This document shows, piece by piece, positions 2,801-46,889 of a stretch of 64,000 nt of DNA. The notes beneath the pieces are model-generated. The model saw nothing but the letters and a program-made list of their open reading frames with translations, searched no databases and was not told the origin of the DNA. Both the position numbers and the translations under genes were made by a program. Every line of letters begins with the position of its first letter. The first letter of the stretch is position 1. This DNA comes from Escherichia phage D6. The DNA is taken from sequence record NC_050154.1, one strand, 5' to 3'.

Positions 2801-4164
2801 TAATCATCCTCCGGCGGTTCTATCGCGATATCATCATCTCCGGCGTCATACCCTGCATCAGATGCATCATAATCACCGTAAATATCAGCCGTTGCCGAAG
2901 GGTCAATATCCAGCTCTTCGTCGTTGGCCTCGAATTCTCCAGCTTTACGCTCGCCATTGCGGTCGTAATCTCCGCACCCCAATTCTTCAACAATGGTTGC
3001 CACATCCGCCCGGCGCTCTGCCAGCCATTGCGGATGGTTAGCCTGAAGCGTCGCAAACTCCCTCGCCTCTTTGTCCAGCTGTTCATCATCAACATCATTG
3101 ACGTCAGAAACAGGTGGTTCGAGAAGAGTGATAGCTTTCGCCGCGCGCGCCGCGAGGATAGCCGGGACGCTGACCCCCTGGCGCTCGATGTATTCAGCAA
3201 CACCGATATCATCCAGTTCCTCGCGCTCACGCATACGTATAGCGGCGGCGATAACTCTGGCAGCGCGTGCGTCAGCGCCAATGCGATATTCAATCTCTTT
3301 GCCACGCTGTTCGGCCTGTAGGCGTGCTAATTCGAGTTTTTCTCTGGCCTCAGCCTCTTTGAATGCTTGCTGGCGAGCGCTCTGACGAAGCTTTTCATCC
3401 CCCTGTCGCAGCTTTTGTTCGGACTGATATATAGCTGCCAACCTACTGATAAAATCATTCATGTAGTAGGCCGCGTCACTGATTAGACCGAGAAGGCGCT
3501 GCCCAGGGTGCATTCCTTCTGGCTCTTTATCGCCCAAGGCGTCTATTTCCGCCTGTAGACGTTCGGCCTCCTGATCAACAATGCTTTGATACTGAAGTGC
3601 GCGCTCTTGCGCCATTTGAATTGCTAACCGCAGGTGTTCTTCTGCGCCGTTCTTCATCATATCGCGAGCCACATTCGTAGTGGGCAATGTGGCACGCTGC
3701 ACAGCACCGCCAGGGATCATTGCTGAAGATCCCTCAATTTTTGGGGCGCTTTTATCTTCTTCGGGGATCATTTTCGCCATTTTTTCGCGCAATGATCTCC
3801 TGACAGATTCTTTTATCTCATTGTTATTATTGGTATTACTTTCATGATCCGAAGTTTTCTTTCTTGGCATACTTCGGAAAGAACCTGCACCCTGCGAATT
3901 GTCAATTTCTGTAAATTTTGTTTTTTCTGCACCCTCTTCCAGCTTTTTTGTTGCTCTTCCCGCCCGTTTTTTTTCAGGTGATTTGGTGCTTTTTTTTGTT
4001 GTCTTTACCTGCGACCGCACCTCATTTTTTTTCATATTGAGATGCTTTCTGGCTGTATTGAAGCTAAGGCCATGCTCCTCACAGTATTCCTTTACAGTGA
4101 TCCCTTTTTCTTCACGCAACGCTATAAAGCGGGCGCGGTGCTCCTCCCAATTAACCAGACTCAT
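2800..4164 (-). CDS. pacA: Terminase small / pac-recognition subunit (PacA-like)
   Basis: 454 aa; N-terminal HTH-like segment (KEYCEEHGLSFNTARKHL); acidic C-terminus; translationally coupled to pacB. Confidence 0.55.
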   Translation of the reverse strand: MSLVNWEEHRARFIALREEKGITVKEYCEEHGLSFNTARKHLNMKKNEVRSQVKTTKKSTKSPEKKRAGRATKKLEEGAEKTKFTEIDNSQGAGSFRSMPRKKTSDHESNTNNNNEIKESVRRSLREKMAKMIPEEDKSAPKIEGSSAMIPGGAVQRATLPTTNVARDMMKNGAEEHLRLAIQMAQERALQYQSIVDQEAERLQAEIDALGDKEPEGMHPGQRLLGLISDAAYYMNDFISRLAAIYQSEQKLRQGDEKLRQSARQQAFKEAEAREKLELARLQAEQRGKEIEYRIGADARAARVIAAAIRMREREELDDIGVAEYIERQGVSVPAILAARAAKAITLLEPPVSDVNDVDDEQLDKEAREFATLQANHPQWLAERRADVATIVEELGCGDYDRNGERKAGEFEANDEELDIDPSATADIYGDYDASDAGYDAGDDDIAIEPPEDD

Positions 4165-6279: not shown

Positions 6280-6443
6280 CATGAGTTCCTGAACGCAGCT
6301 TTAATAATCGGCAATAGCAATACCACAGCTACTGAAACCAGTGCCCCATCAGCCAACACCGACATCACTTTGCTGGTGAAATCCACCAGCACGGACAAAA
6401 CGAGAAAACCAATGGCGCACGCAATACGCGCCTTGCCAATCAT
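6279..6443 (-). CDS. Small membrane protein (54 aa; tciB-like position)
   Basis: Hand-translated micro-ORF; ATG overlaps the TerB-like gene stop (TAATG); two hydrophobic segments. Confidence 0.3.
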   Translation of the reverse strand: MIGKARIACAIGFLVLSVLVDFTSKVMSVLADGALVSVAVVLLLPIIKAAFRNS

Positions 6444-6877
6444 TACAGATAATCTTCCACACGAAGGCCCAAACGACGGCCTACTTCTTCCAGTACTTTG
6501 TGTTCTGCTGGCTCGATTTCACCGTCCGCTTCTGCAATCGTCAGCATGTTAACGAATACTTCTTCCGCTTCTTTTGGATCATTTTTGATATCTTCAATTT
6601 CGCGAAGGATATTCATGCGACCAACACGGAAACCAGCTTCCAGTTGCTCAGTAAAACGGGTGATTGTTGCGGTAATTTCGTTGCCAAAATGACTTAAGCG
6701 AGGATTAGAGCGGACAAGCTGATCAAGTTTCGCTGTTTCTTCCTTTTCGATTTCACCATCTGCGGCAGACACCAACAAACAGCCACCGATAATGGCCTCC
6801 ATCAGATCGCGATTCTCAACCCTTTTCAGCTCTACTTTTGCTGAAGCGACTTTCTTACCGAAAAATTTACCGAACAT
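6443..6877 (-). CDS. TerB-family protein (TciA-like)
   Basis: 144 aa; duplicated acidic EADGEIE motifs typical of TerB; P1 carries TerB-like tciA next to its tRNA genes. Confidence 0.55.
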   Translation of the reverse strand: MFGKFFGKKVASAKVELKRVENRDLMEAIIGGCLLVSAADGEIEKEETAKLDQLVRSNPRLSHFGNEITATITRFTEQLEAGFRVGRMNILREIEDIKNDPKEAEEVFVNMLTIAEADGEIEPAEHKVLEEVGRRLGLRVEDYL

Positions 6878-7144
6878 TGGTTATCCCTCAATAAACATGA
6901 CGTATTTATTAGGTTGCGGTGCCTGGTGCCTCCAGGTGACGTTAACCAGTTAACAATTAACGCCGGGATTTTTGACTTAACCACTAAGGAGGATTGTTTT
7001 AACTGTTCCGCGTGCGCTTAGCCGCATTCACCGCAATGGTAAGAGCACTTGGCTGGCTGGGCGGCGATGACGCCTGTACGCATTTGGTGATCCGGTTCTG
7101 CTTCCGGCATTCGCTTAATTAGCCAAATACTCTTAACGTTGCGC

Positions 7145-7231
7145 TGGCGGAGAGTAATGGAATCGAACCATCATCGCTTGCGCAATGGGACGGTTTTCAA
7201 GACCGCTTGAGCACCATGCGCCCTACTCTCC
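7145..7231 (-). tRNA. Atypical type-II tRNA-like gene (anticodon TGA, Ser?) or pseudo-tRNA
   Basis: Perfect 7-bp acceptor GGAGAGT/ACTCTCC with encoded CCA; anticodon arm GCGGT-CTTGAAA-ACCGT; variable arm with GCAA tetraloop; T-arm GATGG-TTCGATT-CCATT; D-arm not canonical. Confidence 0.4.
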
Positions 7232-7378
7232 GGCCGTTGTGGTGGCCGGTACTGAATCTCCGGCATACGGTGCAGCCAATTAGGACTACGGACGATCACC
7301 GCTCGCGAAAGGGAAGATTTGCGGCCGCATTTCCCTAACATCCAAGAAAGCTATCGCATCAGCCTGCGAATCCACCAC

Positions 7379-7466
7379 AACGTTGAGAACACTGGTTGTC
7401 ACGCTGCAACGCAACATTTATTCGTAGATTGGGATATGACCCCGTTACGCCAGTGTTCTCAACGTT
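7379..7466. repeat. Long-stem hairpin H1 (17-bp perfect inverted repeat, 54-nt loop)
   Basis: aacgttgagaacactgg ... ccagtgttctcaacgtt. Confidence 0.7.
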
Positions 7467-7608
7467 GTAGTGCCGGTTACGGTTCCGGCCAGGCCTCTTC
7501 CTCAACGGGGTGTTCTCCGTACGGACTACCGTTTATTGGTCGTTCCTGCGGTTTATGTTGTGAAGCCAGATGCTTATCTTCTGGTTGCTTCAAAGAGCTG
7601 CACTTCAT

Positions 7609-7695
7609 CACAACGGTAAGGGTACTTCGTAGGGATTCGAACCCTCTGCCAAGCTCGGCGATCTCCGACGTCGCAAAATACCCTTACCTGTTGTG
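7609..7695. repeat. Long-stem hairpin H2 (16-bp stem with one bulge) enclosing a T-arm-like GGTTCGAATCC element
   Basis: cacaacggtaagggta ... tacccttacctgttgtg; internal agggattcgaaccct; directly adjacent to tRNA-Thr; does not fold as a complete tRNA. Confidence 0.6.
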
Positions 7696-7696
7696 C

Positions 7697-7772
7697 TGGT
7701 GCCGATTAACGGACTCGAACCGCTGACATCCTGCTTACAAGGCAGGCGCTCTACCAACTGAGCTAAACCGGC
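7697..7772 (-). tRNA. tRNA-Thr (anticodon TGT)
   Basis: Clean cloverleaf folded by hand: acceptor GCCGGTT/AATCGGC, anticodon stem CCTGC/GCAGG, loop CTTGTAA, T-loop TTCGAGT, encoded CCA. Confidence 0.9.
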
Positions 7773-7774
7773 AT

Positions 7775-7850
7775 TGGCGATGGTGGATGGATTTGAACCA
7801 TCGACCCGTTGATTAACAGTCAACCGCTCTAACCGCTGAGCTACACCATC
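7775..7850 (-). tRNA. tRNA-Asn (anticodon GTT)
   Basis: Clean cloverleaf: acceptor GATGGTG/CACCATC, anticodon stem GTTGA/TCAAC, loop CTGTTAA, T-loop TTCAAAT, encoded CCA. Confidence 0.9.
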
Positions 7851-8353
7851 ACTTGCCGGGTACGTCTCCGGCGAGGGCTTCCACCTCCGTATGCTTTTCG
7901 GCGCACCGCGCCCTGGCTGCAATTCGGTAACAGGGGATGCACAACCCTGGCTTCCAGCGTGATTAGCGCCTTCAGCATGACGGGATATACCCGTTACAAG
8001 AAATTCCCCCAGGATGCCATTAAGCAATGGCTGTTACGCGGGAGGGACGTAACAGGTAAGGGCGCTGACCAGAAAGACCTGACCCTTCTCATTCATCTGG
8101 TTAATCACACCAGCGCCCTTGCCTGTTATGCCTCCCCGTTCCCTAATACACAGACGGGGACACTCTGCGGTCGATTTTTTGACGGGGGACGACTCATACC
8201 CCGTGGCGTCTGGCTTCTTAGGCCGCTACCATCATCAGATCATCGTTTGCATTTACTTTAATGGTCGGTTTCTAAACCGCCGCAAAGTCGCTAACCATGA
8301 CGAAAACCCTAAAAAAGCCCACCCGAAGATGGGCAAATACGCTACATCTCACA

Positions 8354-8432
8354 CAAGAAAGAAGCCGACTGCCTGAGCTGGATTCACTTTCAAATGCCCG
8401 CTGAAAGGGATCACAAGTCGGCTTCTTTCTTG
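8354..8432. repeat. Long-stem hairpin H3 (17-bp perfect inverted repeat, 45-nt loop)
   Basis: caagaaagaagccgact ... agtcggcttctttcttg. Confidence 0.7.
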
Positions 8433-8648
8433 ATGCGGCACTCTCTCCGCCCGTCACCGCTCTGTCTCGGTTGTCGCGTTTGCCACGCCAGCCATAACGA
8501 GGTTTAAAGTCTTTGCACGTTCCCATCACTCGACTGCCGTCTGTGGCTGTTCGTTGCAGCGGGGGTGCCTCCCCCTGGGGATATCCCCGGCCTTACCCCA
8601 TTCTTTCAAGACACAATGCAAGGCCACATCCGCATAGGTGCATTACCG

Positions 8649-8713
8649 CAACATTAAGGAGACTCAGGGCAAAAGGTAACCGCCACAAAAATCCCTATGC
8701 CTCCTTAATGTTG
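8649..8713. repeat. Long-stem hairpin H4 (13-bp perfect inverted repeat, 39-nt loop)
   Basis: caacattaaggag ... ctccttaatgttg; loop contains aaaaggtaacc, also present at 6013. Confidence 0.65.
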
Positions 8714-8941
8714 AAGATGTGCATTGATGATTAGATGCAGCATGTACCGTTACTCTCTGCCGGACCATCATCAATGAACACCTTAAAAAGACCTTCCGTG
8801 GCTCAACATGTATTGTCGTTTACTCCGCAAAGTGCTCTCTCTGAAACCACTTTCCGCACTAAACCTGCTGAACTTTGGCCTGCACGGTGCCAAAGCGTGC
8901 TCTTGCATTACTATACTTTTCTAACACTTTAATTTGTTAAA

Positions 8942-9015
8942 TGCTGGTGGGCGAACAATAACCAATAAGTGACTATCAAGCCCAGCAAGCGAAACGTGGG
9001 TACCGCCCACCAGCA
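8942..9015. repeat. Long-stem hairpin H5 (12-bp perfect inverted repeat, ~50-nt loop)
   Basis: tgctggtgggcg ... cgcccaccagca. Confidence 0.65.
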
Positions 9016-9074
9016 AGGAAAATTCTATGTTAAGTTACCTTCACAATCAATACATTCGAATTGTGATTTTAGAT

Positions 9075-9087
9075 TTCTAACACATTA
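9075..9087 (+). promoter_or_regulatory. Operator-like motif (tttctaacacatt) at the 3' end of the 407-aa gene, facing the ORF-free hairpin region
   Basis: Core matches the dispersed motif; preceded by gtgatttta as at the 54208 site. Confidence 0.4.
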
Positions 9088-10308
9088 TTTCCCGTAAAGA
9101 TCTTCTACACCCCCATTATTCTTATCCCATTCGTTCGCCCATACCCGGCAAGCGTCAATGATTTCCTGACGACGATCTCCTTGCATGAACGGAATGCTTT
9201 CATGGAAACAGCTTGGAATGCAGGCCACACTGAATACAGTATCAAACTCCGTCTGCTTGATTGCCTCCAGCGTCTCCGGACGCATTTTTAATTCATCGAT
9301 TGGCGCATCCTTAGAGTCCATAATCCGGCGATATAAGCACGGAAAATCCGTCTCCAGGTACGCCATAATTTTATCTGCGAGACATTCGTCTATGTCGGTA
9401 TTCCAGTCCTTTTCGAAGCCCGGCAGGCGATAGTAAAGCGGCGTTCCCCATACCGATGGGATCACATCCATCGTTAACAGGCGATTGGTTCTGATTTGTT
9501 GATGGTAATTAGCCGTCAGCAGTGCTTCGCCACGCTGCCCAGTTTCCGCAACCAGGCCGTGCGGATACTCATGGATGTAGGCAATGGCATCCCGCCCATC
9601 ATACATAAGTGGAAATGTCTCTGGTCTTTGTCCCATGCCACAAGCACGGTTCAGATCGTGACCAAGCTGTGAGCACTCTCGCTTTAATGTTTCGATAATG
9701 CTCTGCGCTGTAGCCAACTTTTTACGCAGTGTGACGCCTTCGCCTTGATAATCAATGCATTGCTGATTGAGCTTGGTTAAACGCTCTTTTAGTTCCCGGC
9801 GCTCTCTTTTCAGCGTGCGGTTATCCTTCTCCGCAACATCCAGCCGCTTTGTCAGGCTTGGCGGATAGTCTTTTTTGTAACGGTTCAAATCGGCTTCGGC
9901 AGATTTACGCAGTGTATTTGCCTGTTCAAGACGCGCTTCCAGATTGCCGATCTCATTACGCATATTCGCGGCAAATTGATTAACTGCATCACCCAGGCTT
10001 TCAACTGTCGCTGATACGCCTGTGACTTGTGAAAAACGGATCAAGCCATCATTAACGGCTTGTTGGTATTCCTCAAACTGATCCACCAGCTTATTGTAAT
10101 CAACTGCCCCATCATCAAGCAGCTTGTTGATTTCCGCCACCAGGTTATCTGTAGTGGCAATGACACTCTCGTGCAGTCGCTTTGACAGGTCATCACCAGG
10201 ATTCCGTTTCTGTATAAGAGCGATTTGTGTGCGCAGCGTTTCAATTGCTGTCGAGATAATTTCCAGATTAGAAGTATCAGTGTGTTGACTCATTGCTGTT
10301 CCCGTCAC
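9085..10308 (-). CDS. Hypothetical coiled-coil protein with a C-terminal globular domain carrying an HExxH motif
   Basis: 407 aa; N-terminal ~200 aa heptad-rich; HEYPH in AIAYIHEYPHGLVAE; several conserved-looking Cys; operator-like motif ~15 bp upstream of the start. Confidence 0.4.
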   Translation of the reverse strand: MTGTAMSQHTDTSNLEIISTAIETLRTQIALIQKRNPGDDLSKRLHESVIATTDNLVAEINKLLDDGAVDYNKLVDQFEEYQQAVNDGLIRFSQVTGVSATVESLGDAVNQFAANMRNEIGNLEARLEQANTLRKSAEADLNRYKKDYPPSLTKRLDVAEKDNRTLKRERRELKERLTKLNQQCIDYQGEGVTLRKKLATAQSIIETLKRECSQLGHDLNRACGMGQRPETFPLMYDGRDAIAYIHEYPHGLVAETGQRGEALLTANYHQQIRTNRLLTMDVIPSVWGTPLYYRLPGFEKDWNTDIDECLADKIMAYLETDFPCLYRRIMDSKDAPIDELKMRPETLEAIKQTEFDTVFSVACIPSCFHESIPFMQGDRRQEIIDACRVWANEWDKNNGGVEDLYGK

Positions 10309-10917: not shown

Positions 10918-11412
10918 TTAATCAAGACAAACATACTCCGTGATAGCTTTTATGGCTTCAGCGGCACTGCGCGCCTCAAAGCAGTAGTAACCGGCTTCTG
11001 TGAGGCGAGTCATCCAGACGAGTTGTTCGGGAGTCAGGCGATTTCTCCCATGTTTCATCTCAATGCGCATTCCGTGGTATCCCCCACAAGCAAGGTCTAT
11101 AGAAAGATCGGGATATCCCTTCTTTTGGCCCTCTGCCACCATTTTTATTGCCGTCCTTATGCCTCGCAGGCCACCGTTTGGAGTGGCGTGAGTATGCTCA
11201 TACACATAACGCATATTGCGATACATCCAGTCCAGGACGCGAACCTGCTCGTAATGCTCATGGTTCCTTTTGATTAGATCTGGGTTTTTCTCCAGTTCTC
11301 TAAGAGCTGCGGCATGTGGGGATGTTTCAGAATATTCACTGCGACGCCTTCTCTTTCGCGCTATTTTTCTAACACACCCATTGATAGTAAATATGCGAAA
11401 TAATAACAACAA
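10918..11412 (-). CDS. VRR-NUC domain nuclease-like protein (start codon uncertain)
   Basis: GYPDL ... LACGGYHGMRIEMK signature; an operator-like motif sits inside the annotated 5' end, so the true start is probably downstream. Confidence 0.55.
   Translation of the reverse strand: MLLLFRIFTINGCVRKIARKRRRRSEYSETSPHAAALRELEKNPDLIKRNHEHYEQVRVLDWMYRNMRYVYEHTHATPNGGLRGIRTAIKMVAEGQKKGYPDLSIDLACGGYHGMRIEMKHGRNRLTPEQLVWMTRLTEAGYYCFEARSAAEAIKAITEYVCLD
11366..11377 (+). promoter_or_regulatory. Operator-like motif (ttttctaacaca)
   Basis: Exact core match; upstream of the VRR-NUC coding core. Confidence 0.4.
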
Positions 11413-11548
11413 CGTTAGATTTGTAAAACAAGAGAGATACTACTCAAGGATGGTCTATATGCAACAGGTCGGATTTGCTTTTAGAGTAAAGAGCGACCTT
11501 AATCAACAAGGAGGGTAAATCGCATGGCATTTACCCAACCTGTTATTT

Positions 11549-21266: not shown

Positions 21267-21284
21267 TTTTCTAACACAAATCAT
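21267..21284 (+). promoter_or_regulatory. Operator-like motif (ttttctaacacaaatcat) upstream of the c4/icd/ant-like operon
   Basis: 18-bp identity with the site at 54208..54225. Confidence 0.5.
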
Positions 21285-44630: not shown

Positions 44631-45452
44631 TTAATAATGGTTAGCCATCCATTCAGATCTAATTGATGGGATAAACTCTCTATTGAGAAAGGGGACGTAC
44701 AGTGTGGTTGTCACATCTGCACCCTCCTTAGCGTTTTTGCAATGTTGCGGAGGCAGGATCAGTCGGCTTGTGCCTCTCTCAATAGACATTTTCAGGCCGT
44801 GGCGTAGGTCTTTTTGCATAAGCTGTATGCGAGCCACAAGCGGAGTAAATTCGGTTTCAAGCGCCATGCTTTCAATGATGTCAAAGCGTCGGTTAGCGGC
44901 CTGCGTGAAGTCCTCCGGATCGTCTTCAAGCGCCGTGCATAAAGCGAGTTCAGCAATTCGCATCCGTGCCACGCCAGCACTGTATTCGGGGCTTTTCATA
45001 TCAGGAAGTGACGCTCGCATTCGTTCAAGGAGTTCCGCGCCTTTCCCGGTTAATGGTTTAAGTATCCAGTCAGTTGGTATTCCATTTACTGGTACGTTGG
45101 TTTTCACGTAAGGAGGTACAGTGAGTATTTCTACTGTTTGGGCCAGGTCGCTCAGGTTAATATCTGCATGATGCGTATTACCGCAGTGACTGCACTCATA
45201 GGAGTAGGTCATTACTGCATCGGGGCGCGAATTAACAAATATCCACCAAAGAGCAGTTCTGCGATCCTGAACTGTCCAGTTAGCACTGTCGTTAATTTCA
45301 CCATCCTGCATAGAGTTAAGGTACTCTGTAGTAGTTGCCTCATCTTCTGCCGGGTTCAGGTCAGAATATTTCAGCGCATCCTTCACGGTAGGGGCGTGGA
45401 ACTGAATTTCTGTCTCAGGACGGGAAGGCAATGGGAATTTTGGAATGTTCAA
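44631..45452 (-). CDS. Tail-assembly-associated protein with Zn-ribbon (PmgB-like position)
   Basis: 273 aa; CSHCG motif; first gene of the tail operon. Confidence 0.3.
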   Translation of the reverse strand: MNIPKFPLPSRPETEIQFHAPTVKDALKYSDLNPAEDEATTTEYLNSMQDGEINDSANWTVQDRRTALWWIFVNSRPDAVMTYSYECSHCGNTHHADINLSDLAQTVEILTVPPYVKTNVPVNGIPTDWILKPLTGKGAELLERMRASLPDMKSPEYSAGVARMRIAELALCTALEDDPEDFTQAANRRFDIIESMALETEFTPLVARIQLMQKDLRHGLKMSIERGTSRLILPPQHCKNAKEGADVTTTLYVPFLNREFIPSIRSEWMANHY

Positions 45453-45840: not shown

Positions 45841-46596
45841 ATGAACAGAGCGGAATTAACAGCAAAAGCCGTCAGCCTGATTGAGTCAGCGACACCTATT
45901 AGTCGTAGTTTGGCACAAGCCAATGAGATCACGGAGGCTGCTTATCACCTGACTCGCGACCAAAAGCGACTGTTGTTTATTGTGGTGGGAAGACTTCGCT
46001 ATGCTTCTAAGGATGGCGTTCTTGGTTCAGGTGCCTGTGAGTTGACGGTCAACGAATATGCAGAGATGTATAATTTGCCCTCTGCTGAAGCCAGCAAGGA
46101 TATTCGTAAGGCCATTTCAGGTCTTAGCGAGAAGAAAGTTACGATATATAACCCTGATGAATCGACCGAATCAGAAGACAGTTATGAGTCTTATCCTTGG
46201 ATGATTAAGGATGCCTATTCACCACGGCGCGGGACTTACATTATTCATCTTAATCCATATCTCATGCCGTTTTTTACTCTGCTTGATAAGAGATTCACAA
46301 GGCTGAATTTTACCGAAGTATCTCGCCTTACAAATCCTTATTCTATGCGGCTTTATGAGTCCTTATGCCAGTACAGGAAGGATGATGGAAGCGGCTTTGC
46401 CATACTTGGCGTCGAATGGATGCGGGAGCGTTATGGGTTACCAAAAAGCTATCAGCGGTATGCCGAATTTAAGAGAAGTTTTTTAACGAAGGCTGTAGCA
46501 GAGATTGAAAAAAATACAAAAATGAAAATAGTCTTCTCAGAGGTGACGGAAGGCGGCAAAGTTACCAGGATAAAATTTACCTATCAGCAGTCTTAA
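45841..46596 (+). CDS. repA: Iteron-binding plasmid replication initiator (RepA-type)
   Basis: 251 aa from the first ATG (track ORF begins at an upstream TTG inside the last iteron); flanked by iterons on both sides as in the P1 R replicon, but different iteron sequence. Confidence 0.6.
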   Translation: MNRAELTAKAVSLIESATPISRSLAQANEITEAAYHLTRDQKRLLFIVVGRLRYASKDGVLGSGACELTVNEYAEMYNLPSAEASKDIRKAISGLSEKKVTIYNPDESTESEDSYESYPWMIKDAYSPRRGTYIIHLNPYLMPFFTLLDKRFTRLNFTEVSRLTNPYSMRLYESLCQYRKDDGSGFAILGVEWMRERYGLPKSYQRYAEFKRSFLTKAVAEIEKNTKMKIVFSEVTEGGKVTRIKFTYQQS

Positions 46597-46889
46597 GGGC
46601 AATTTTTACACCCTTCTCAAGGTGTAGAATTTGCCCTTAACGATCGGCAATTGAGGGCAATTTTTACATCTTAATTGCATGTATCTTGTTATTAGCAAGT
46701 TGTGTTTTTATATAACGTATTGATATATAAGGGTTATGTAAAAATCACCCTCAACCAATATCGTGCGTATCGTGCATTCTTATTGCGCTTTTTTATTATC
46801 ATTCACTGTGTTAACTGATTGATATTATTGAAATGTGTAAAGAATGCCTTCATTACAGATGAATTGATGATGTAAAAAATGCCCTCAAA
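46593..46889. repeat. Downstream iteron array in mixed orientation (incA-like copy-control locus)
   Basis: ttaagggcaatttttacaccc, ggtgtagaatttgcccttaa, ttgagggcaatttttacatc, tatgtaaaaatcaccctcaa, gatgtaaaaaatgccctcaa. Confidence 0.7.

Follow-up and report, generated by a model that had tools for sequence, protein, structure and literature searches.

The DNA analysed here, a 64,000-nt stretch of Escherichia phage D6 (NC_050154.1; hereafter the window), is assigned by its sequence to a P1/P7-like phage-plasmid. On its minus strand, positions 6878–9015 (about 2.1 kb) are identified, by comparison with phage P1, as the non-coding, tRNA-interleaved leader of the repressor-controlled early "ban operon". 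Five long hairpins of this leader, H1–H5, belong to a series of ten or more conserved units of RNA folding. The pattern of substitution in relatives identifies the hairpins as sense-oriented structures conserved at the RNA level, with selection on the closing helices and relaxed selection on most interiors. The same family of modules is recognised, by its sequence signature, in the late-gene leader of lambda-like prophages. We give a probability of about 0.5 to a reading in cis, in which the modules help a polycistronic tRNA precursor to fold, be processed and be insulated, and would also yield stable small RNAs. The feature fits the phage-encoded structured or tRNA-like RNAs of tRNA operons and leaders; the mechanism is one that we infer.

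Folding units of the leader

The first-pass annotation had reported five inverted repeats between 7379 and 9015, and all five were recovered where it placed them; each is far more stable, on either strand, than its dinucleotide shuffles (z = −4.0 to −8.0, with 0/200 shuffles as good). Its list was correct in its members and incomplete, having overlooked HX, HY, HZ, H0 and three modules of a second type (Y modules). Seven of the approximately 10 inverted repeats with separated arms in the window fall within 7373–9015, which is 2.6% of its length. The structure of each leader half gives z = −6.1, as compared to −1.2 and 0.0 for the adjacent coding sequences (CDSs). Other long inverted repeats of the window are located at 44673–44792 (20-nt arms 80 nt apart) and 46593–46754 (TTAAGGGCAATTTTTACA-type repeats). 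The modules are the following.

H1, minus strand, arms 7373–7395 / 7450–7472: 23-nt arms, 96% complementary.
H2, minus strand, 7609–7695: putative tRNA-elbow mimic with a 21-bp closing helix, a bulged A, a D-arm-like hairpin and the T arm GGGTTCGAATCCC.
H3, minus strand, arms 8354–8370 / 8416–8432: 17/17 perfect stem, directly upstream of a terminator.
H4, minus strand, arms 8649–8669 / 8693–8713: X-type long-stem hairpin with the 3′ flank GUUGCGGUAAUGC.
H5, minus strand, arms 8942–8953 / 9004–9015: 12/12 stem, at the predicted 5′ end of the transcript.
HX, minus strand, 8041–8137: X-type scaffold hairpin (AACAGGYAAGGGCGCUG...), from inverted-repeat search and shuffles.
HY, minus strand, 8711–8787: long-stem hairpin abutting H4, from inverted-repeat search and shuffles.
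HZ, minus strand, 8801–8873: imperfect long hairpin (z = −3.1).
H0, minus strand, 7032–7143: X-type hairpin (z = −3.7) whose 3′ arm, ...GUGCUCUUACCAUUGCGGUGAAU, continues into the next module.
'mid', minus strand, 7235–7382: Y-type module with the closing helix CGUUGUGGUGG/CCACCACAACG, from inverted-repeat search and homologues.
Y-type module, minus strand, 8555–8650: closing helix UUGCGGU/GCUGCAA (weak, z = −1.3).
STnc100-like module, minus strand, 6915–7035: the terB 5′ untranslated region (RF02076, 39.6 bits against a gathering score of 47).

The Y modules at 7235–7382, 8555–8650 and 6915–7035 each contain several hairpins closed by a 9–11 bp helix. In that at 8555–8650, the 3′-proximal hairpin, GGGGG-AGGCA-CCCCC, is like that of STnc100 when the alignment is compared by eye. 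H0, H1, H2, HX and H4 have common ends, 5′ (C)ACAAC ... GUUGYGGUGAAU(GC) 3′; the earlier description of five hairpins that differ in sequence and share an architecture is therefore too weak for H1, H2 and H4, which have this sequence signature in common with H0 and HX. The interior motif GUAACGGGGUCAUAUCCCAAUCUAC of H1 is also found in another P1 module (H2c). H2 and H0 start 1 nt past the CCA of tRNA-Thr and tRNA-Ser, respectively, and in CMS-2020a, H1-like hairpins begin at the last bases of tRNA-Thr and tRNA-Ser. No U-run follows any of H0–H5, HX, HY or HZ, and none of them has the form of an intrinsic terminator, as had been remarked for the original five; a separate canonical terminator is located at 8334–8310, approximately 20 nt past H3.

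Both arms of H5 contain the Chi octamer GCTGGTGG, one per strand (8943–8950 on the plus strand and 9014–9007 on the minus strand), and the Chi-bearing stretch of the stem varies in none of the relatives, whose H5 interiors diverge. In the H4 stem, UUAAGGAGG, a strong Shine–Dalgarno-like sequence, is paired with CUCCUUAA, a sequence similar to the 16S rRNA 3′ end; the Shine–Dalgarno-like sequence is followed by no conserved open reading frame (ORF).

Conservation of the stems

Relatives were gathered by terB anchoring, pattern scans and PLSDB (individual loci are given L numbers). For H3, H4, HY and H5, the relatives compared are 74–93% identical, and 95–99% of the stem cells are paired in them (98.9% for H4 and 96.8% for HY). 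Variable columns account for 27% of the stems against 70% of the interiors. Pairs changed on both sides number three in H3, three in H4, none in HY and two in H5; these counts, and the wobble counts given below, derive from few, related sequences, and the events are not independent. Relatives preserve the stems by compensatory change as the interiors diverge. The inner helix of H4 in L188/L189 has a different sequence, with pairing kept. A G·G mismatch of HZ in the window corresponds to U-A in relatives, and HX shows a compensatory U-A to C-G change between the window and the P1 group, with its interior in the same orientation in the window and P1. The H5 stem is present in all relatives, and its interior is variable at 39 of 57 columns. 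H3 is absent from L190/L191. Divergence of L188 is 0.14 in stems, 0.33 in interiors and 0.17 in the rest of the leader.

On the transcribed strand, H3, H4, HY and H5 contain 57 G·U against 4 A·C cells (HY, 21 against 2), and 87 distinct hairpins contain 25 G·U against 8 A·C. Since a G·U pair of the minus strand is a mismatch in DNA or on the opposite strand, the stems are selected as minus-strand RNA and not as cruciforms. Among the possibilities first offered, protein-binding cruciforms conflict with this bias and with the fixed orientation of the modules, whereas an array of small structured RNAs agrees with the compensatory stem changes, the transcribed-strand wobble bias and the always-sense orientation.

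H2 resembles a tRNA elbow

The strand order of H2 in its 18 distinct homologues is helix, D-like arm, linker, T arm, helix. The D-arm-like hairpin GCGA-CGUCGGAGA-UCGC (4-bp stem and 9-nt loop with GG) and the canonical T arm AGGG-UUCGAAU-CCCU are invariant in all 18 sequences, and a linker of 11–13 nt stands where the anticodon arm would be. In the 21-bp closing helix, 10/21 pairs have changed on both sides and 96.2% of the cells are paired; 0/500 shuffles were as good, and slid controls reached at most 48% paired. Nearly all of the helix sequence is different in L162 and still pairs, and one U·G pair is retained in 17/18 homologues. The H2 interior is identical in phages with unrelated flanks. 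Beyond the P1 family, homologues are found in Enterobacter phage BUCT554 (an ε15-like podovirus) and in several P22/lambda-like prophages (between Q and holin), the latter with no tRNA gene nearby. Among 185,579 species-representative genomes, a single one has the H2 core.

ARAGORN reports four tRNAs in the window, all of them true tRNAs, and makes no call on H2. No tRNA or YrlA model of Rfam matches H2, and no tRNA model matches any of the hairpins (cmscan, E ≤ 10). As the D-like and T arms are present, the anticodon arm is gone and the tRNA models are silent, H2 is tRNA-derived and not a tRNA, having kept the D-loop/T-loop elbow, lost the anticodon arm and extended the acceptor-side helix to 21 bp; its two arms would be expected to form a D/T elbow. 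A T arm together with a GG-bearing D-arm-like hairpin, which loosely defines a tRNA-like class, is found in H2 only. The earlier proposal of tRNA-derived elements with extended acceptor-like stems therefore holds for H2, with its D-like and T arms and covarying helix 1 nt past the tRNA-Thr CCA, and found no such support in H3, H4 and H5.

The scaffold in other phages

A scan for the X scaffold located it in at least 120 further viral contigs. Across 249 loci, the 129 distinct modules that form a hairpin sort into 40 families whose 35–55 nt interiors (referred to as cargo) are unrelated, while the scaffold helix (~20 bp; cacAACAGGTAAGaGCAtTg ... agtgCtcTTtCcGTTGTGgtgaa) is near-constant in sequence and contains a U·U mismatch and a bulged A. 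A T-arm-like hairpin occurs in 10/54 cargo representatives, compared with 0.13 expected. The modules are in the sense orientation in 160/161 gene relations, with Q upstream and holin, lysozyme and terB downstream. In an annotated Escherichia coli prophage, they occupy the 1-kb gap between Q and holin, past a PR′-like promoter and a tR′-like terminator. Considered as CRISPR-spacer-like sequences, the cargo interiors have no match outside homologous modules in 2.8 Mb of phage DNA. A miniature inverted-repeat transposable element (MITE) or dispersed palindromic repeat was rejected, as the modules are found in phage leaders only, in 160/161 cases in sense, with 40 unrelated interiors and in one species-representative genome.

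The GUUGYGGUG strand can pair in two directions: backward, it closes the X hairpin, and forward, with CACCRCAAC, it closes the following Y module. Compensatory variants are seen for both alternative helices, for example GUUGUGAUG/CAUCACAAC in L008. Homologues of the 'mid' Y module are found in BUCT554, P1 and lambdoid loci. The 5′ hairpin loop of 'mid', GGCUGA, is complementary to the 3′ hairpin loop (A)UCAGC in all homologues (window 7354–7369 and 7246–7262, minus strand; L084, L165, L171, L186), which suggests a possible kissing-loop contact. Its small 5′ hairpin has compensatory changes (GCGCA/UGCGC, UCGCA/UGCGA and GCACA/UGUGC). One more conserved stretch of leader, ...UUUAGAAACUGA...AAAUGCAAACGA... 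and then a GAGG-UCUUCCGAUU-CCUC hairpin, is located at approximately 8140–8300 of the window, just past the terminator; it is common to lambdoid late leaders (L186 4990–5095; L086, L093, L136, L144, L165) and the P1/window leader.

The plp and upl annotations

The region had been described as ORF-free. This is correct insofar as its mechanical ORFs have no family support; the P1 record, however, annotates plp and upl on the homologous DNA. H1 and H2 are present in P1 (NC_005856) with 98–100% identity, within the annotated plp CDS and on the opposite strand, and upl covers or adjoins a further scaffold module and a Y module. The plp/upl region of NC_005856 spans 3067–3636, and its counterpart in the window is the ORF at 7319–7726 (plus strand). 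That the region encodes Plp and Upl on the plus strand, the repeats being incidental, is extremely unlikely. The two genes are annotated in P1 and several other records and the plp-like ORF, of 96–139 aa, stays open across relatives, but the P1 plp CDS overlaps tRNA-Thr antisense by 30 nt, and the ORF in the window has no Pfam family. Its C-terminal third is not conserved, being replaced in the many relatives with a 196-nt insertion, which consists of a Y module and a second scaffold hairpin; the H2 interior has no synonymous-type variation where its flanks are 15% diverged; and the RNA modules are also present in phages without that ORF context. A P1vir RNA-seq paper mentions upl solely as an up-regulated gene. 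From these comparisons, Plp and Upl are probably spurious genes, misannotated on the wrong strand and copied into many records, and the annotation would need correction in hundreds of phage-plasmid records.

Comparison with known RNAs

At the gathering threshold, Rfam 15 reports only three tRNAs, C4 and c4-a1b1 in the window, so that the scan with Infernal that had been recommended places no family over the hairpins. The same search gave tRNAs and STnc100 only in 11 related loci and no family in the P1 leader. Matches to miRNA-precursor families were discarded as generic long-hairpin matches. DicF, like the proposed products a prophage small RNA cut from a longer transcript, has no Rfam match in the P1 leader (E ≤ 1) or the window leader (E ≤ 10); P1 does carry a 'dicF-like' label on the terminator region (window ~8300–8340), but this label does not cover the hairpins. 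A candidate self-cleaving hammerhead (CUGAUG...GAAA past H2 in L008) was rejected, the motif being the loop of a small hairpin with no Rfam match. No description of the modules was found in the literature on the ban operon, lambdoid tRNA-like RNAs and the core sequences, and the core sequences are printed in no paper of the literature searched; the P1 genome paper (Łobocka 2004) lies outside this coverage, so an earlier mention of the inverted repeats is possible.

By its arrangement, the nearest classical analogue is rnaC (species 1 RNA) of phage T4, a small non-tRNA RNA within a phage tRNA cluster, a few bases from its neighbour and on the same strand. Like H2, rnaC has a canonical T arm (CCGGGUUCGAAUCCCGG) just before the 3′ strand of its closing helix and no recognisable anticodon arm. 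It differs in having no sequence similarity, two long internal hairpins and a short closing helix, compared with 21 bp in H2; moreover, T4 is virulent and its cluster is not the leader of protein genes. No function is known for rnaC. YrlA and the Y RNAs (RF02553) also combine a long helix of the 5′ and 3′ ends with a tRNA-like domain that mimics the T and D arms. However, the RF02553 model does not match over H1–H5, its sole hit (25.6 bits against a gathering score of 69) lying over tRNA-Thr/Asn. In YrlA, the long helix stands in the position of the anticodon stem and the acceptor is closed, whereas the long helix of H2 is in the acceptor position. No rsr (Ro) gene is found near the region among the ORFs and annotation, which comprise terB, a DUF3927 protein and a DivIVA-like protein. 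An anticodon-less H2 mimic would join T4 rnaC and the Y RNAs as tRNA look-alikes.

In rRNA operons and in T7 early RNA, RNase III cuts processing stalks, which are helices of about two turns. These stalks, like the modules, are formed from the flanks of a functional RNA in a polycistronic untranslated precursor; here, in contrast, the enclosed RNAs are only 35–55 nt, and the scaffold is conserved in sequence, which RNase III does not require. Helix length (12–23 bp) is the sole feature of the modules compatible with RNase III. ERIC, Correia and other MITEs are likewise units of 70–130 bp with terminal inverted repeats that form hairpins in transcripts, but the modules are undispersed, fixed in orientation, unrelated between copies in their interiors and confined to phage leaders.

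The STnc100/PasD RNAs (RF02076) are co-located with terB, Q and holin in lambdoid prophages, and the Y modules resemble STnc100 in a GGUG...CACC closing helix, AAU, a 5′ hairpin and a 3′ hairpin with an AGGCA-type loop. The match at 6915–7035 covers model positions 31–147 only and stays below the gathering score, and the same element in P1 scores 33.4 bits. The other Y modules have no STnc100 hit in the Rfam scan of the window, and the long-stem X hairpins (H0–H5) are unmatched by RF02076. In L162, a full STnc100 (109.7 bits) follows the H2 homologue. These RNAs, reported to be Hfq-dependent base-pairing small RNAs (bioRxiv 10.64898/2026.05.13.724894), lie next to the Y modules and may be related to them. 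As a precedent for modules that accumulate as stable RNAs, an abundant 101-nt RNA, P22E, comes from the P22 late leader, and by inspection of its printed sequence is a long-stem hairpin (PMC13397905).

Setting of the leader

Positions 6900–9100 of the window are 100% identical to the E. coli plasmid pRHB38-C13_3, and 6903–8337 share 93–95% identity with phages P7 and P1. The C4 antisense RNA and its a1/b1 targets are present (Rfam scan). The P1 record has, on the same strand and in this order, Pban/Op72, the dicF-like region, tRNA-Asn, tRNA-Thr, tciA(terB)BC, tRNA-Ile and ban; the P1 counterpart of the region is thus the leader of the C1-controlled ban operon, for which the strand in the window is minus. 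The first-pass annotation had overlooked the identity of this leader, its minus-strand transcription, the location of H5 at the predicted 5′ end and the presence of H1 and H2 in P1 under plp. The features that accompany the modules are listed below.

Operator-like motif TTTCTAACA, plus strand, 9074..9082: upstream of the −35 hexamer (repeated-motif count).
Sigma-70-like promoter of the leader, minus strand, 9022..9050: TTGATT-17-TAGAAT (consensus match), predicted start ~9015.
Second copy of TTTCTAACA, plus strand, 8918..8926: immediately downstream of H5 (repeated-motif count).
Intrinsic terminator, minus strand, 8310..8334: GCCCAUCUUCGGGUGGGC + U6, common to P1 and overlapping the annotated 'dicF-like region'.
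tRNA-Asn (GTT), minus strand, 7775..7850 (ARAGORN and Rfam).
tRNA-Thr (TGT), minus strand, 7697..7772 (ARAGORN and Rfam).
tRNA-Ser (TGA), class II, minus strand, 7145..7231 (ARAGORN).
terB (tciA homologue), minus strand, 6443..6877: first protein-coding gene past the leader (PF05099, E = 2e-14).

The predicted promoter is in a position analogous to Pban/Op72 of P1, and a palindrome, TCACAAT-N12-ATTGTGA (9041–9067), overlaps its −35 hexamer. The operator-like motif that had been noticed at 9075 is a real repeated motif: TTTCTAACA occurs seven times in the window, compared with 0.48 expected (at 199, 8918, 9074, 10323, 11366, 21268 and 54209). The copies sit in a longer common motif, ~TTAGTTTTCTAACAYA; that at 21268 is upstream of c4, and those at 9074 and 8918 flank the predicted promoter and H5. 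The P1 C1 operator ATTGCTCTAATAAATTT has no match in the window within 3 mismatches. Since TTTCTAACA is repeated around the promoter and near c4, the set probably represents the operators of the element's own heteroimmune C1-type repressor. Judging from P1, induction or infection probably turns the leader on. Upstream of the leader, a 407-aa coiled-coil protein (9085–10308, minus strand; weak DivIVA and ERM-helical matches) replaces the P1 dmt methyltransferase, and the H3–H5 part of the leader travels with this gene in this sublineage.

All four tRNAs of the window are on the minus strand (Asn, Thr, Ser(TGA) and one with a CAT anticodon; ARAGORN). The best Rfam score of tRNA-Ser (7145–7231) is on the tRNA-Sec model (43.1 bits against a gathering score of 47), and it is missed at the threshold, as class II phage tRNAs often are. 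The tRNA set of the leader varies among close relatives (L004–L046, L085, L150), which have Asn and Thr and may add Tyr(GTA), Arg(TCT) and Ser(TGA); the repertoire of phage tRNAs thus seems to turn over rapidly.

Possible functions of the modules

In the reading that we favour, the leader would be a single polycistronic precursor composed of self-contained units: X modules, in which a closing helix of 12–23 bp would surround an interior of 35–55 nt, Y modules, in which a short closing helix would surround several hairpins, and true tRNAs. The operon would run from the promoter through the leader, tRNA-Asn, tRNA-Thr, tRNA-Ser, terB and tRNA(CAT) and, in P1, on to ban. The helices of about two turns, the length preferred by RNase III, could act as processing stalks at which the precursor is cut into tRNA-sized pieces, and these cuts would adjoin the sites at which RNase P and RNase E act on the tRNAs. 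H5 at the 5′ end and the 3′ hairpin of each module may cap the RNA against 5′-end-dependent RNase E and 3′ exonucleases. Few single-stranded stretches would be left for Rho loading, so that the polymerase could continue to the tRNAs, terB and ban. Once released, the hairpins would probably accumulate as stable RNAs of 65–110 nt. The structures, with their conservation, strand, orientation and context, are observed; we infer that the leader is transcribed from the predicted promoter, that these nucleases act on it and that it is insulated. With processing and insulation units of this kind, a phage could express its tRNAs and genes across kilobases of untranslated RNA and need no dedicated antiterminator. 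Few genetic elements have been studied as well as P1 and the lambdoid phages, yet approximately 2 kb of highly transcribed leader is full of conserved RNA structures without an Rfam family.

Several points weigh against this reading. The promoter of the leader is a consensus match only. The strong terminator at 8334–8310 splits H5–H3 from the tRNAs, and a promoter-like site was looked for past it and not found, so that the leader may be transcribed in two pieces unless read-through is assumed. A structural role leaves unexplained the constancy of the X-scaffold sequence over at least 40 cargo families, the invariant D-like and T arms of H2 and the recurrence of T arms in the cargo. In lambdoid prophages, the Q-modified polymerase is already resistant to termination, and insulation from Rho is unneeded there. 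RNase III cleavage is not predictable from sequence, and the covariation counts are drawn from few, related sequences.

The same constant scaffold, invariant H2 interior and recurrent T arms suggest that a factor recognises the modules, which may act in trans. The modules would then be trans-acting RNAs, in which a constant helix and tail are bound by a host or phage factor and a variable cargo is presented; H2 would mimic the elbow as a decoy for an enzyme that binds tRNA or a defence nuclease that targets it, and the other cargos would be regulators or sponges. We consider this less probable than the cis reading. It is favoured by the near-constant scaffold with at least 40 unrelated cargos in 249 loci, by the D-like and T arms of H2 that are invariant across P1-like, lambdoid and ε15-like phages, by the enrichment of T-arm-like hairpins in the cargo and by the neighbouring tRNA set, which varies in relatives (Asn, Thr, Tyr, Arg, Ser). 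Varying tRNA sets are the pattern expected of counter-defence tRNA arrays. On the other hand, the cargos are unmatched elsewhere in the 2.8 Mb of phage DNA, the interiors of H3, H4 and H5 evolve no more slowly than the remainder of the leader, as if unconstrained, and H2 has no anticodon arm, the part of a tRNA that anticodon nucleases recognise. The Hfq dependence reported for the adjacent STnc100/PasD (bioRxiv 10.64898/2026.05.13.724894) would also fit trans action. A constant helix with variable cargo would be a new class of phage small RNAs. More speculative, and doubtful at present, is a shared 'scaffolded' RNA system of P1-like phage-plasmids, P22/lambda-like prophages and ε15-like podoviruses, in which a specific host or phage factor would recognise the ~20-bp helix (bulged A, U·U mismatch and GGUGAAU tail) and RNAs with hypervariable 35–55 nt cargo, of at least 40 families, several based on tRNA T arms and one a complete tRNA-elbow mimic, would be excised from leaders and act in trans in phage–host or phage–phage conflict, for example as decoys for tRNA-directed enzymes.

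Readings without an RNA function fare less well. The region is highly mosaic, modules and tRNAs are gained or lost between close relatives, H2 is clearly tRNA-derived and H3 is missing from L190/L191, all of which would suit evolutionary debris, that is, decayed tRNA genes and recombination scars with no present function; we regard this as improbable, because the stems are kept by compensatory changes and evolve more slowly than the surrounding leader, the H2 interior is identical amid unrelated flanks and the orientation is strictly sense. DNA-level elements (cruciforms, protein-binding palindromes, MITE-like repeats or recombination sites) would account for long near-perfect inverted repeats with common terminal sequences that are present or absent as units, and for Chi in both arms of H5. 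They are nevertheless very improbable in view of the strong one-strand bias of G·U over A·C, the orientation fixed relative to transcription, the restriction of copies to phage leaders with no target-site duplications seen, and the occurrence of the H2 core in only 1/185,579 species-representative genomes.

Processive antitermination (BoxA/Nus-dependent or put-like), by which the modules would allow read-through of the leader terminator and resistance to Rho, is quite unlikely. The lambdoid scaffold 3′ arm CAGUGCUCUUUCC and the P1-type arms UGCUCUUACC do resemble the BoxA of rrn (UGCUCUUUAACAA) and that of lambda (CGCUCUUAC), and intrinsic terminators in the leaders must be passed. A precedent is the protection of long untranslated CRISPR arrays by BoxA (PMC7665894). 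The gamma-proteobacterial consensus GYTCTTTAANA (PMC5725501), however, is unmatched in the leader even with 1 mismatch. BoxA is expected to be single-stranded, whereas the BoxA-like stretch is base-paired within the 20-bp helix; H1, H2, H3 and H5 of the window have no such stretch, and YGCTCTTWM is present in H0 only.

Over the whole window, YGCTCTTWM occurs 13 times, compared with 4 expected. A BoxA-like nonamer, CGCTCTTTA, is located at 11487–11495 (minus strand), approximately 75 nt upstream of a 164-aa VRR-NUC ORF (10918–11412) and near an operator-like motif.

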